Of a stretch of 46,960 bases of DNA, positions 42,801 to 46,960 are shown piece after piece. A program made the translations under genes and the position numbers. Below the pieces are notes generated by a model. It was not told where the DNA came from, made no database searches, and saw nothing but the letters and a program-made list of their open reading frames with translations. Position 1 is the first letter of the stretch. Every line of letters begins with the position of its first letter. The DNA comes from a virus: positions 1 through 46,960 of the IMG/VR virus record IMGVR_UViG_3300045988_180211; one strand, written 5' to 3'.

Positions 42801-45800
42801 ATGGGAATTCTTGACGCAATCGGCTACACCGACGCGGCGGACGATGTTGATTTGAGCGCGCCCCTGCCACTTACACCCGAGCAAGCCTCCCAGAGCTATA
42901 AGGCCGCGGCTGACTTTGACGTGACGCCCGACGAGGTGACGCAGGGGATGCGTGATGAGCATCGAAAAAAGATGATGTTCGAAGGCGCCGGCGATGCCTT
43001 CAAAACGAAAATGGCCAACCCGACCTTTCGCGCGGCCGTGCAGGGCGACGAAAAATCACCGTCTGCGTTTGAAGAAATTGCGCTTTCCATTGCGCCCGCG
43101 GACAAGAGCAGTGGCGACTGGAGCGACATCGCCCGCCGCGGGTTTGCCCGTAGCGTCATGGGGGTCAGTCGATCCGTGATGGGGAGCGACGCCGTCGATC
43201 TTCGAGAGCAACTTGACGAACTTCGAAAGCCCAAAAACTACAAGGAATGGGAGCGGCGGCACGGGGTAATCGAAGAGCGTCTTCGCGACCTTGCGGCGCG
43301 GATCGTTCGTGAGCGGGCGGTCACCGAGGCTCTGCGCCCGAGTGACGCGCCTATGACGAAGATTGGGCAGGCGTGGAATGAAAAAGGAGCGCTGGCCGCC
43401 GTCGGGGAATTTCTGAGTCACCCGATTGATTCGACCACGGACCTGTTCAGCGAGGCATCCCTCCCGTTAGGGGCGACGATGGGGGCGGGCGTGGCGGCGG
43501 CCGGAGCCGCTGGCGTGGCGGCCTCCGTCCCTGCGGGTGCCGCGCTTGCCATCGCCGCACTCGCGGCGGGTGCCGTGGATGCGTCAATTTCGGCTCATGA
43601 CGCGCTTTTCGACCAGATGGAGAAGGCCGGCGTAGACATGAAGGACGTCGACTCCGTAGCGGACTTTCTAATTCGCGATGCTAGATTCAATCGCACCTGG
43701 GGCAAAGCGCAAAACTATGGTACGGCGGTTGGTGCCGGTACGGCGGTGAGCCTTGGGCTTTCCCGCATCACGACGCCTGTGCGCTTGGGGGCGAAGGCGA
43801 CCGAAGTCGTGCCGCCTGTGGCCAAAGCGTACGAGGCCATCAACGCAAACGCCTACCGTCACATGCTTCAGAATTTCGGAGCGCAAGTAGGCATCCAAGG
43901 GTCGGTCGGTGCGGGCGCCGAGGCGGTGGGGCAGATCGCCGCCGACGGCAAGGTGACGGACACCTTCTCGGTATTCCTCAATGGCGTGACCGACATGGTC
44001 ACCGCGCCGATCGAGCTGGGCGTTTCCAGTTTTGCCGTGCGGCAGGGCGTTCGCGCGGAGAAGGCGAGAACGGAATTCAACGCCATGCAGTTGCAGAAAG
44101 CCGTCCAAGTGGCAAAGAACTCGCAGGCCTTCGAAAAGACGCCTGAGCTCTTCGACGAATTTGCCACCGCCGTGGGCGAGCAGAACCCCGGCATTGCGAC
44201 CGTGGGCATCGATGTGGCTTCCCTGCACCAGGAAGGCGAAGCCGGCGCGGCGGCAGTGGAGGCCATCAAGGAAATCCTCCCGCATAAAGCAAACGAAATC
44301 GATGAGGCCGTGCAGACCGGCTCTGTGGTAGAGCTTCCGTTGGCGCAATACATTCAGGCGGCGAAGGACGATCGCGTCACGGCGTCCGTTTCCAGGCACT
44401 CCGTCGTCGGTGACGACGCCACCTTGGCGCAAGCCCAGAGAGCGGAAGCGGCGGTTGTGCAGGATCGTGATTACGGGATTGCCCGCCTCTCCAAAGGTCG
44501 GGCACCCGAGTTCAGGGTCTCTTTGCAAAAGGTAGCGCGGGAATACAAGGCGGCGCTTGACGCTTTGCCCGGCATGCAGAAGAAGGGTGGGGACGAGAAG
44601 GAGCGCCTCGCCCTGGTGGCCTTGACGATGAACCACGTCGCGAACATGGCCGCCGATGCCGGCATGCTGCCTGAGGAAGTGTGGCGCGACTTCGGTATCC
44701 GCCACGTGCTTTCGGGCGGCAACGACATCGTTCGCGCCGACGGTGGGTTGATCGCGGCGACGAACCGCGCGAAGGCTGCCTTTAACGACAAGGTCGAAGG
44801 CGACCTCGGGCAGATACCAACGGCTGACGAAGCCAGAGGGCGTGCGGTTGCCCGCGTGCCGCGTGAAGGCCTGCAGAGAAAACCGGACGAAATAAAGGTT
44901 GAGGTTATCGACATCGGTAATCCGCAACTGCGTTCGCCGTCGGAACTCCGCGAGGCAATCATAACGGCCTTGGCCGGTACGGTGGTGAAGATCAAGTCCA
45001 CCGGGCAGGACATTCTTCTTTCCAAAAGTGGGTTGAAGCGCTCTGCTAAAAAACGCTCGGATGAGCACAGCAAGTTGTACAGCTCGCTGTTACGCGTGAT
45101 TGAGCGGTCCGAGTATGACGGCACGGAGCCGAACGACGGGCTGAAGGGGCACACGGTCGACCAGGACGTTTACCATTCGGCCGTTCGCATGGGCGGCAAA
45201 CTGTACTCCGTGCGCATCAAGGCGGACGTAGCCAGTGCAGGGGAGAAGGCGCTCCAGGCTTCCGGGGCGCAGGAAGTCAAATTCGACGGCCGATACGCCG
45301 ACCACGCCGTGGCGGAGATCGACGTATCGGAGGTAAAAAATTACCCCGGACAGCTGCCGTCCGAAGGTTTATTCCCTGTCGGTGTCGACAGGGGGACAGC
45401 CCTTCCGGCTTCCACTTCCGGGGTTTCTGCCATAACTTTAGGTGTGATCCGTGGGAATGTCAAGCCGTCGAAGCTCGAAAACAACCTGCTGTCACAGGAA
45501 ACCTTGGGGGCGTATTACCCTGATCACCGGACGATCGTGCGGTGGCAAGGGGCAAATCGCTCCACCTTGCTTCACGAAACGGGCCACTGGTATCTCTTCA
45601 GCCGCGCGAAGTTGGCGCAGGAGCTGCGGGCGCGGACCGATCTCACCGATGCGCAGAAAGAGTTCATCCTTTGGACCGAAAAAACGATTCAGTGGCTGGG
45701 GGGCAAAGGCATCGAAAGCTTTCTCAACATGCCGATCGAAGACGCTCGTGCCATGCACGAAAAGTTCGCCCGAACCTACGAGCAATACCTGAAGGATGGA

Positions 45801-46960
45801 CGGGCTCCGAACAGCGCCTTGACGCGCGTTTTCCGCCTTTTCAGCGGTTGGCTGAAAAACGTCGTCTACGGCATTCTCAAAGCCGTGCCGGGGTCGGCGG
45901 AAATGAAGCCTGACGTGCAGGAACTTTTTGACGCGCTGTTCGTTTCCTCTGAGCAGATTCGGGAAGCGCAATTGCGCCGCCATCTTTTCCTCGCCGTGGA
46001 CAAGGTGAAGAGCGGCGACGTGGCGCAGTCTGAAGTGGACGACGCCTTGGTGCGGGCCATGAACGCCGCCTTTAAAAACGTTGATGACGCGGCTGAAGAA
46101 AAGTTCAATCGCCGCGGTGAAGCCGTCGTTGGGCGCCTTCGCCGCCTTCGCGACCGAGTTTTCAACGACCTCACGAAACAGGCGGAGGCGCTTCGCAAGC
46201 AATACACCGCCGAGGCCATCAATGAGCGCCTTGGAGAACGTCGCCTTGACGCAGAAATTTTCTTCGACACGGCGCAAACCCGTTACGACAAACGCGGCGG
46301 GGAGCGCAAAGTCAAACCCAAGCTCCTCGCCAGCGACCTTGCCAAAATGGGGATCGATGAGTGGCGCATTGAGGAACTGAAAAAACGCGGGTGGGTGAGC
46401 CGGCGCGACGACGTTGGTGTTCTCCATCACCCCGAACTGGTGGCGGAAACATTGGGGTTCTCTAGCGCTTCCGAGATGGTGTTCTCGCTCACCACCGATG
46501 TCTTCGACGGCAAGACGCGCGAGAAGTGGGCTGAGCCGATCGTTCAAGAGCGGATGCAAAACGAGCACCCTGAGCTGGCTGAGAAAGAAACCATCGCCGA
46601 ATCGGCGGATGCCGCGGTTTTCAACCTGACGGCCTCCCAGATGGTGGCGCTCGAAATTCAGTTCTTGGAAGGGGCGAGGGGCAAGCCCGTGGAATTGGCG
46701 CTTTTCGACGCCGTTGCGAACGCATCCTTGTCTGAAAAAACCATTTCGGACGTAAAGCCAAAGACGATGCGCACGGCGGCTACGCGATTTGCCGAGCAGG
46801 CGCAAGACATGGTCAAGAAGGGCAACCTCTTAGACGCCGCGACCGCAAAGCGCCGCCAGCTCGTTCAGATGCGCATGGCCGACCTTGCGCAGGACTTTCT
46901 TGACCGCGCGGAATCCTTCGTAAAGAAGATGCAGAAGGCGTACGCCCCCGGTAAGTCCGA
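42801..46960 (+). CDS. Giant internal virion/ejection (polyvalent) protein, 5-prime part; continues in frame across the junction into 1..2396 (full length 2,166 aa)
   Basis: ATG at 42801 lies 2 nt after the stop of the upstream gene. Manual translation found no in-frame stop to the window end, which explains its absence from the ORF track. Ala/Gly-rich hydrophobic stretches occur at about aa 215-300. HETGH is at 45573-45587. The gene sits in the T7 gp16 position. Confidence 0.85.
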   Translation, partial: MGILDAIGYTDAADDVDLSAPLPLTPEQASQSYKAAADFDVTPDEVTQGMRDEHRKKMMFEGAGDAFKTKMANPTFRAAVQGDEKSPSAFEEIALSIAPADKSSGDWSDIARRGFARSVMGVSRSVMGSDAVDLREQLDELRKPKNYKEWERRHGVIEERLRDLAARIVRERAVTEALRPSDAPMTKIGQAWNEKGALAAVGEFLSHPIDSTTDLFSEASLPLGATMGAGVAAAGAAGVAASVPAGAALAIAALAAGAVDASISAHDALFDQMEKAGVDMKDVDSVADFLIRDARFNRTWGKAQNYGTAVGAGTAVSLGLSRITTPVRLGAKATEVVPPVAKAYEAINANAYRHMLQNFGAQVGIQGSVGAGAEAVGQIAADGKVTDTFSVFLNGVTDMVTAPIELGVSSFAVRQGVRAEKARTEFNAMQLQKAVQVAKNSQAFEKTPELFDEFATAVGEQNPGIATVGIDVASLHQEGEAGAAAVEAIKEILPHKANEIDEAVQTGSVVELPLAQYIQAAKDDRVTASVSRHSVVGDDATLAQAQRAEAAVVQDRDYGIARLSKGRAPEFRVSLQKVAREYKAALDALPGMQKKGGDEKERLALVALTMNHVANMAADAGMLPEEVWRDFGIRHVLSGGNDIVRADGGLIAATNRAKAAFNDKVEGDLGQIPTADEARGRAVARVPREGLQRKPDEIKVEVIDIGNPQLRSPSELREAIITALAGTVVKIKSTGQDILLSKSGLKRSAKKRSDEHSKLYSSLLRVIERSEYDGTEPNDGLKGHTVDQDVYHSAVRMGGKLYSVRIKADVASAGEKALQASGAQEVKFDGRYADHAVAEIDVSEVKNYPGQLPSEGLFPVGVDRGTALPASTSGVSAITLGVIRGNVKPSKLENNLLSQETLGAYYPDHRTIVRWQGANRSTLLHETGHWYLFSRAKLAQELRARTDLTDAQKEFILWTEKTIQWLGGKGIESFLNMPIEDARAMHEKFARTYEQYLKDGRAPNSALTRVFRLFSGWLKNVVYGILKAVPGSAEMKPDVQELFDALFVSSEQIREAQLRRHLFLAVDKVKSGDVAQSEVDDALVRAMNAAFKNVDDAAEEKFNRRGEAVVGRLRRLRDRVFNDLTKQAEALRKQYTAEAINERLGERRLDAEIFFDTAQTRYDKRGGERKVKPKLLASDLAKMGIDEWRIEELKKRGWVSRRDDVGVLHHPELVAETLGFSSASEMVFSLTTDVFDGKTREKWAEPIVQERMQNEHPELAEKETIAESADAAVFNLTASQMVALEIQFLEGARGKPVELALFDAVANASLSEKTISDVKPKTMRTAATRFAEQAQDMVKKGNLLDAATAKRRQLVQMRMADLAQDFLDRAESFVKKMQKAYAPGKS
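46906..46960 (+). repeat. Terminal direct repeat, copy 2 (identical to 1-55)
   Basis: Same 55-mer as 1-55. The offset is 46,905 nt, a multiple of 3. Confidence 0.95.

Follow-up and report, generated by a model that had tools for sequence, protein, structure and literature searches.

The 46,960-nt DNA sequence analyzed here, IMG/VR virus record IMGVR_UViG_3300045988_180211 (positions 1–46,960; hereafter the window), carries a long reading frame that runs off its right end, and a listed open reading frame (ORF) of 790 amino acids (aa) near its left end. The question raised by this locus is whether the two are parts of a single giant gene and, if so, what kind of protein that gene encodes.

One gene across the ends of a circular contig

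Positions 1–55 of the window are an exact copy of 46906–46960, and no terminal overlap longer than 55 nt is present. When one copy of the 55-mer was removed, the sequence formed a circle of 46,905 bp. The frame starting at the ATG at 42801 was retranslated and met no in-frame stop codon up to the window end; it continued across the junction and terminated at a stop codon ending at 2396. The joined gene thus comprises 6,501 nt including the stop codon and encodes 2,166 aa, and in these respects the preliminary description of the window, made from its letters alone, was reproduced. That description had also held that the frame runs on into the listed ORF 24..2396, because 46,905 is divisible by 3. 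The division and the continuation are both correct, but the reason is not: the frame is kept because position 24 is a first codon base counted from 42801. The ATG of ORF 24..2396 is codon 1377 of the joined gene, so that the ORF list holds just the last 790 codons, as had been stated, and the junction itself cuts codon 1369 (base 46905 plus positions 1–2). Nothing else of the gene was listed because the ORF-listing tool omits ORFs that run off a contig end. On the 5′ side, the nearest in-frame stop codon is at 42747 and the first start codon thereafter is the ATG at 42801, which is preceded by a Shine–Dalgarno-like stretch (GGGGGAAAA) and sits 2 nt past the stop codon of the upstream gene for an 828-aa protein.

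Independent assemblies from other samples cross the junction. A public protein (P0001) has 2,166 aa and is 99% identical to the giant protein of the window; its contig (ENA ERZ28572026 scaffold_669, designated L003) aligned over all 6,501 nt with 98.8% identity and 0 gaps. A second independent assembly from another sample (L004) likewise crosses the junction. Both traverse it gap-free, each with a single copy of the 55-mer, and continuity was thereby confirmed. The terminal 55-nt repeat is therefore an overlap left by the assembler when it linearized a circular contig and not a biological repeat, and the “hidden” gene is an artefact of the point at which the circle was cut, not biology; the full-length 2,166-aa gene has already been called in public assemblies. 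Between the window and L003, the giant gene shows 57 synonymous versus 18 non-synonymous codon differences, and third codon positions take 58 of the 76 substitutions, and the whole joined frame is therefore under purifying selection. Within the window alone, the sole link between the ends is the 55-nt identity, so that a spurious overlap might have joined true ends belonging to a 3′-truncated gene and a separate 790-aa gene; this alternative was refuted as the source of the joined gene by L003 and L004, is further opposed by the public P0001, by the collinearity of ~90 relatives over the junction point and by the third-position substitution bias, which persists across the junction, and retains a practically negligible probability.

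Modules, cassette slot and HExxH motif of the giant protein

Module borders taken from BLASTP comparison with 80 relatives split the giant protein into three blocks: an N module (aa 1 to ~670), a variable cassette (aa 671–896) and a C module (aa ~897–2166). The coordinates of these and of the other features are collected in Table 1.

Table 1. Features of the giant gene and its neighbours, in window coordinates
Feature	Position	Strand	Basis
Giant gene, 5′ part (codons 1–1368 and first base of codon 1369; goes on at position 1)	42801..46905	+	Gap-free alignment to L003
Giant gene, 3′ part (rest of codon 1369 to codon 2166 and stop)	1..2396	+	ORF list shows 24–2396
55-nt copy of window 1–55	46906..46960	.	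Exact identity; single copy in L003 and L004
N module, family-specific, mostly helical (aa 1–670)	42801..44810	+	Exhaustive HMMER; BLASTP blocks; AlphaFold2
Divergent LPD22-like N-terminal domain (aa 22–145)	42864..43235	+	Profile from N termini of LPD22-positive members, E = 3e-8 (Z = 1, 20 bits)
Ala/Gly-rich hydrophobic segment (aa 224–265)	43470..43595	+	Kyte–Doolittle 19-residue maximum 1.86; AlphaFold2 helical, low confidence
Variable cassette slot between N module and HExxH domain (aa 671–896)	44811..45488	+	91 relatives; local alignment
LPD3 domain (aa 716–816)	44946..45248	+	Pfam PF18798, E = 8.2e-12, 45.8 bits (cut-off 27)
528-nt in-frame segment absent from 96–98% identical L004/L005 (aa ~713–888)	44943..45470	+	Flanking 7-nt direct repeat
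7-nt direct repeat GCCGTCG, bounding the 528-nt segment	44936–44942 and 45464–45470	+	
Putative zincin-like HExxH domain opening the C module (aa ~897–1086)	45489..46058	+	Invariant residues; AlphaFold2; PDB profile match
H925-E926-xx-H929 (HETGH, aa 925–929)	45573–45587	+	
E987, invariant Glu downstream of HExxH	45759–45761	+	
E994, invariant Glu downstream of HExxH	45780–45782	+	
C-terminal all-alpha scaffold of the C module (aa 1370–2166)	3..2393	+	AlphaFold2 mean pLDDT 81.9, pTM 0.81; phrog_9880; hydrophobicity
gp14-like internal virion protein	39571..40311	+	phrog_418, E = 2.2e-14; Pfam T7_gp14, E = 2.4e-4 (below curated cut-off)
828-aa internal protein (Bbp11/epsilon15 gp15 position)	40312..42798	+	Pfam SLT, E = 0.0054 (below cut-off); phrog_10475, E = 3e-12; synteny
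Tail-fibre gene, N-terminal tail-attachment domain	2429..3463	+	phrog_1640, E = 5.6e-19, and 12 other tail/fibre families

The size of the slot was taken as the insert between the ends of the N and C modules, projected onto 91 relatives. This insert was shorter than 60 aa in 52 relatives, which were counted as having an empty slot, 100–399 aa long in 37, and at least 400 aa long in two; none fell at 60–99 aa. The single-domain inserts belonged to at least 11 unrelated cassette classes, including three divergent LPD3 groups, two groups of PBECR1, two of PBECR3 (one matched weakly, E = 0.007), MuF_C, GNAT, and one group with no Pfam match. The ART-PolyVal domain of a Caulobacter phage BL94 protein and the PBECR1 domain of Bbp10 from Bordetella phage BPP-1 have a comparable position, as judged from Pfam residue ranges that were not mapped onto the slot. 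In the window protein, the swappable slot holds an LPD3 domain, a feature that the preliminary description had missed. The LPD3 alignment contained conserved Ser and Gly positions only, together with semi-conserved His, Trp and Tyr positions, and LPD3 is not among the LPDs that Iyer et al. (PMC5512222) regarded as likely enzymes.

Close relatives differ in the slot. Five proteins (P0002–P0006), which share 98% of C-module and 94% of N-module residues with the window protein, lack exactly aa 713–888, and among relatives of ~80% identity two (P0007 and P0009) have no cassette and one (P0008) has an unrelated 180-aa insert. The core function of the giant protein therefore does not require LPD3. 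At the nucleotide level, the loss in L004 is a microhomology deletion of LPD3, because a 7-nt direct repeat bounds the 528 nt and because L004 keeps the ~40-aa leader of the cassette. As a separate observation, a 1,157-nt tract of the window (44553–45708) that spans the cassette showed zero substitutions relative to L003, with the rest of the gene 1.17% divergent (P ~1e-4, uniform model, corrected); this tract may reflect a recent exchange or recombination that carried the cassette.

The C module opens with a conserved HExxH motif (HETGH in the window protein, HESGH in Bbp10), likewise overlooked in the preliminary description. H925, E926, H929, E987 and E994 were invariant in alignments of 23–58 members, the 23-sequence alignment including Bbp10. 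In 86 of the 91 relatives, 49 of the 52 cassette-less ones among them, the motif lies 29 residues past the start of the C module. In the AlphaFold2 model, the core around the motif (aa ~907–1016) was predicted with a predicted local distance difference test score (pLDDT) of 84–95, and of ~55–85 toward aa 1086, and showed two short beta-strands followed by the motif helix. The best PDB profile match for the region was the light chain of botulinum-like toxin Wo, aligned on HExxH at a marginal E value of 0.043. Residues 700–1000 of Bbp10 were a seed of the CLCA_X zincin family (Lenart et al., PMC3650047), and in polyvalent proteins a metallopeptidase serves as the hub domain, with a proposed role in processing them (Iyer et al. 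2017, PMC5512222). From these data we infer that the HExxH...E domain is a zincin-type metallopeptidase, the activity of which would be proteolytic.

An exhaustive HMMER search of 1.84 billion representative proteins with the N module returned 76 representative clusters (E ≤ 1e-3), in most of which the matched stretch was N-terminal in a protein of ~1,900–2,300 aa. A word-indexed homolog search with aa 1–899 had found no match, even though a 99%-identical protein exists; we suspect that Ala/Gly-rich words filled its candidate list, and homologs were obtained instead by the exhaustive HMMER search and with a C-module query. The model of aa ~416–666 had a pLDDT mostly of 70–93, with local dips to ~55–60. 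The Pfam LPD22 model itself did not match aa 22–145, for which the LPD22-like assignment comes from the family profile given in Table 1. The Ala/Gly-rich segment quoted in the preliminary description was located at ~aa 224–259, inside the strongest Kyte–Doolittle window of the protein (aa 231–265). The top hydrophobic peak lies at ~aa 246 family-wide, and further conserved hydrophobic helices lie near aa 1846 and 2029.

The C-terminal part of the C module was modelled as an all-helical body (mean pLDDT and predicted template modelling score, pTM, in Table 1). A search of BFVD with the model of aa 1370–2166 gave 104 matches at E ≤ 1e-3, with template modelling (TM) scores of up to 0.84, and many of the matched phage proteins are named as LPD-containing, PolyVal ART, nuclease, MuF_C or GNAT proteins. 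Because these matches carry such varied effector names, the C module looks like a common scaffold on which different phages hang different effector domains. No significant match was obtained when the whole giant protein or a whole-family profile was compared with the PDB (phmmer and profile search), and Foldseek searches of the PDB with both AlphaFold2 models retrieved generic helical or membrane proteins only.

Relatives and proposed function

In tblastn searches, the C-terminal ~1,250 aa were matched in 47 phage genomes. The best scores included Bordetella phages BPP-1, BIP-1 and BMP-1 (31% identity, E = 3e-107) and Caulobacter Rauchvirus phages (28%, E = 2e-93); weaker matches were found in Xanthomonas CP2-like, Vibrio, Pseudomonas and cyanophage genomes, and identity over aa ~900–2150 to Bbp10, the Rauchvirus proteins and Xanthomonas CP2 was 23–31%. 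The family phrog_9880 spans aa 908–2139 (E = 1.1e-165). Megablast with the giant gene found no DNA-level relatives among GenBank phages, the similarity being at the protein level only. BPP-1 Bbp10 (NP_958679, 2,052 aa) and BL94 gp037c (2,039 aa) are of a like size class and are encoded at a like position, between the SLT protein and the fibre, and their C modules are 28–31% identical to that of the window protein over ~1,250 aa. The N module gave a weak collinear BLASTP match to both (E ~0.01), which was undetected by tblastn, and an LPD22-type N terminus is common to the three proteins, in the window protein by the family hidden Markov model (HMM) only. The order of tail tube A and B, gp14-like, SLT, giant and fibre genes in the window is that of bbp14–bbp9 in BPP-1 and of gp042c–gp036c in BL94. 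Sequence, synteny and the N module all place the giant protein in the Bbp10-type family, and it is the ortholog of Bbp10 and of Caulobacter Rauchvirus gp037c. The middle cassette differs, being LPD3 in the window, PBECR1 in Bbp10 and ART-PolyVal in BL94, the latter two together with LPD22.

The position of the gene also agrees with that of T7 gene 16, as had been suggested in the preliminary description: it closes the internal-protein block, of which it is the largest member, with the gp14-like and SLT genes before it and the fibre gene next, which is the T7 14-15-16-17 order. In Table 2 of Hardies et al. 2016 (PMC4819975), the homolog given for IVP-D (T7 gp16) in BPP-1 is Bbp10, a link that was reported only after stepwise HMM joining in a podovirus-only database; the same study describes internal virion proteins as hosts of domains bound for the cytoplasm. 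T7 gp16/IVP-D and the window protein are alike in position, in size class and in an almost wholly alpha-helical nature (AlphaFold2). They differ in length, the window protein being ~850 aa longer than T7 gp16, and in that T7 gp16 has a transglycosylase at its own N terminus, whereas no SLT match was found within the giant protein; the weak SLT match of the window belongs to the protein encoded just before it, an arrangement shared with BPP-1 bbp11 and epsilon15 gp15. In epsilon15 (locus L007, 6670–11327), two genes encoding gp16 (634 aa) and gp17 (918 aa) are present where the window has one 2,166-aa gene, which suggests a history of fusion or fission in the group.

Polyvalent proteins of phages and conjugative elements (PMC5512222) are likewise very large and multidomain, with LPD domains and a domain content that varies between orthologs, and in phages are encoded, as here, in a structural module; their zincin-like metallopeptidase domain would have its counterpart in the putative HExxH domain of the window protein. 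The reading of the giant protein as polyvalent, put forward in the preliminary description, gained support from LPD3, which scored above the cut-off in the window protein, from LPD22 with PBECR1 or with ART-PolyVal in the orthologs, and from the mosaicism of the orthologs, in which the slot is either empty or filled by one of at least 11 classes of cassette. There are also differences. The polyvalent archetypes carry 2–15 catalytic domains, whereas the window protein has one clear effector-type domain and is mostly a conserved helical scaffold; their domains are shuffled along the chain, whereas here the variable domain is in one fixed slot; and unlike their hub metallopeptidase, the HExxH region of the window protein is not matched by Pfam metallopeptidase models. 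Other giant, capsid-internal podophage ejection proteins with LPD and/or metallopeptidase domains are phi24B gp47 (2,811 aa; LPD1/5/38 and MuF-C), which was detected in virions by proteomics (bioRxiv 10.64898/2026.04.10.717836), and gp27/gp28 of cyanophage A4, the pre-ejectosome structure of which has been solved and in which gp28 has transglycosylase and metallopeptidase domains (PMC12002296). The LPD sets differ from that of the window protein. In the comparison with these systems, no PDB chain was matched by sequence, A4 being covered if the local copy holds it, and no PDB chain was matched significantly by Foldseek, in a library that was not checked for the A4 entries.

Taken together, synteny and the literature, with Pfam for the polyvalent part, support the description of an injected virion protein, and the intact gene probably encodes the largest internal virion (ejection) protein of the phage, at the T7 gp16/IVP-D position and with a polyvalent build. 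On the precedents of T7, epsilon15 and N4 and the polyvalent-protein hypothesis, a few copies would sit on the portal as part of the capsid core and would be ejected through the tail at infection, after the gp14-like and SLT-bearing proteins. The helical N and C modules, with their conserved hydrophobic helices, might then help to build or cross a conduit through the envelope, while the middle cassette, here LPD3, would enter the cell along with them and act early as an accessory effector. The predicted HExxH zincin might divide the chain into functional pieces, a role that has been put forward for polyvalent proteins in general, possibly by cutting between the N and C modules, or it might cleave an envelope or host target.

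Several results weigh against this assignment. With hhalign, the family profile reached a probability of 1.8% against T7 gp16, and of 0.4% (single sequence) and 0.9% (79-sequence IMG/VR profile, 73–99% identity) against epsilon15 gp17. HMM comparison with the PDB showed no similarity to gp16, and Foldseek of aa 1370–2166 against the PDB had a membrane pyrophosphatase as its best match (E = 0.086) and returned no phage protein, the comparability of the PDB-resolved parts of gp16 not having been examined. For the zincin, the sole structural hint from Foldseek of the AlphaFold2 model was PprI, at a non-significant E value of 3.2, from a 1,200-residue query that probably diluted any zincin signal, and a Pfam scan of the HExxH region in 23 members at E ≤ 10 gave scattered noise and no metallopeptidase model. 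The LPD3 profile found no relative in the PDB, and the cassette was modelled with a pLDDT below 50. The HExxH domain is kept in relatives with no cassette and must therefore do more than release a cassette. Finally, the searched literature contained no proteomic or structural evidence for this protein or Bbp10 in the virion. Other comparisons were also negative: hhalign against single-sequence epsilon15 gp16 was not significant, the invariant motifs of the family (GGYYPIxYD, VDxPTW and others) were not found in epsilon15 gp17, and an NCBIfam scan matched nothing. A search for T7 gp16 homologs yielded no diverse profile, because every protein retrieved was more than 94% identical. A likeness between the family motif G-x-Y-x-P-x-x-YD and aa 660–673 of T7 gp16 (E = 0.028, probability 1.8%) was rejected as insufficient. 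Homology to T7 gp16 was thus not reproduced in this analysis, and we treat the giant protein as one that probably works like gp16 and that would be the counterpart of the published IVP-D of BPP-1.

A more specific proposal, which we regard as tentative and as somewhat less probable than its negation, is that the site 29 aa before the zincin motif is a single fixed plug-in point, at which cargo of ~200 aa is swapped, lost or gained and from which it is injected, LPD3 then being an effector directed at host defence or physiology and released by the adjacent protease. An unlikely alternative is that the product is an ejection protein in which the HExxH domain does not process the protein itself but degrades the envelope, cutting peptidoglycan cross-links or an outer-membrane or periplasmic protein so that DNA can pass, and LPD3 is a structural spacer and not a cytoplasmic effector. 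Retention of HExxH in the 49 cassette-less relatives speaks for such a cassette-independent role; a similar role has been proposed for the metallopeptidase of phi24B gp47 (bioRxiv 10.64898/2026.04.10.717836), and A4 gp28 joins its metallopeptidase to a transglycosylase in one ejection protein (PMC12002296). However, the slot domains of relatives (ADP-ribosyltransferase, BECR-type RNase-like, GNAT) have their substrates in the cytoplasm, an argument for reading the slot as a carrier of cytoplasm-bound cargo, and self-processing was argued for by Iyer et al. (PMC5512222). Far less probable still is a lysis protein or endolysin that attacks the cell wall from the inside as infection ends: although GenBank labels the matches in Caulobacter BL94, Jess A and RapA and in cyanophages “lysis protein” or “lysin”, Pfam, PHROGs and NCBIfam detected no lysozyme, SLT or amidase domain in the giant protein, the weak SLT match belongs to the preceding gene, from which the label was probably transferred, the gene lies in the structural module between the internal-protein and tail-fibre genes, and 2,166 aa is no size for an endolysin.

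The phage and its relatives

The window encodes a T7-type portal (Pfam Head-tail_con, E = 2e-176), an epsilon15-type major capsid protein (Pfam GP7, E = 1.5e-119), an integrase, a family A DNA polymerase, a DUF2800/PD-(D/E)XK nuclease, an SNF2 helicase and a primase-helicase, and represents a temperate podophage of the BPP-1/epsilon15-like group, assembled as a circle. The giant gene is preceded by genes for tail tubular proteins A (phrog_394) and B (phrog_376), the gp14-like protein and the 828-aa SLT protein; this order, followed by the giant and tail-fibre genes, is conserved in L003 and L004. The gp14-like gene is listed with a TTG start codon (246 aa), and gene callers give 230 aa for its counterparts in L003 and L004; the true start is probably 48 nt downstream of the listed TTG. 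No tRNA genes were found in the window.

A tyrosine integrase (Phage_int_M, Phage_integrase and arm-binding domain) is encoded at 7964–9139 on the minus strand. Homology between the window and L003 ends at ~9274 of the window, and L003 (interval concerned, 22862–24213) runs from the phage integrase into bacterial-looking genes, including those for an RlmI-like methyltransferase and CobW. Because the homology ends there and bacterial-looking genes follow, the attachment site lies near window position 9274, ~9.3 kb from the junction, and the phage also exists as a prophage in another sample.

The distal tail-fibre/host-range region, downstream of the giant gene, is unrelated in relatives that are otherwise 96–99% identical (window 4507–7058 versus L003, and 4475–5404 versus L004). 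The replaced region contains an XkdX-like gene in L003 and a Collar/DUF4376 set in L004, and looks like the swap of a host-range module. The region of BPP-1 used for comparison has a diversity-generating retroelement beside the fibre genes; in the window, no template/variable repeat pair of this kind was seen, the terminal 55-mer being the sole long repeat, and reverse transcriptase was not specifically searched for.

Two repeats stand apart from the giant gene. Just 5′ of the portal gene, two tandem 45-nt units with 80% identity (31186–31275, in ORF 31174–31710) specify a Glu/Pro-rich peptide of 15 aa twice over. At 9386–9418 and 10513–10545 there are two copies, 85% identical, of a GC-rich hairpin with a run of A after it (GAAAAAGCCGCCCGGAGGCGGCTCAAAAA); the pair look like bidirectional terminators around a P63C-domain gene (9430–10434, minus strand).

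As a practical matter, a circular phage contig opened within its largest gene no longer shows that gene in the ORF track, and circular contigs are best re-called after rotation. The family and the polyvalent concept have already been published; the slot analysis and the LPD3 pair add useful details and not a new kind of system, and none of these findings overturns the current understanding. What emerges for the family is a fixed slot that is empty in 52 of 91 relatives, that otherwise takes about a dozen alternative cargo domains, and that adjoins an invariant protease-like motif. The natural presence or absence of LPD3 at 96–98% identity makes the function of LPD3 and of HExxH directly testable, in a pair that also differs in the tail-fibre region. 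If the plug-in reading is true, the window phage or L003, with LPD3, and L004 or L005, with the 528-nt deletion, would provide a ready experiment for the target of LPD3. The giant gene would be a well-delimited example of podophage ejection proteins that double as delivery vehicles for early effectors.

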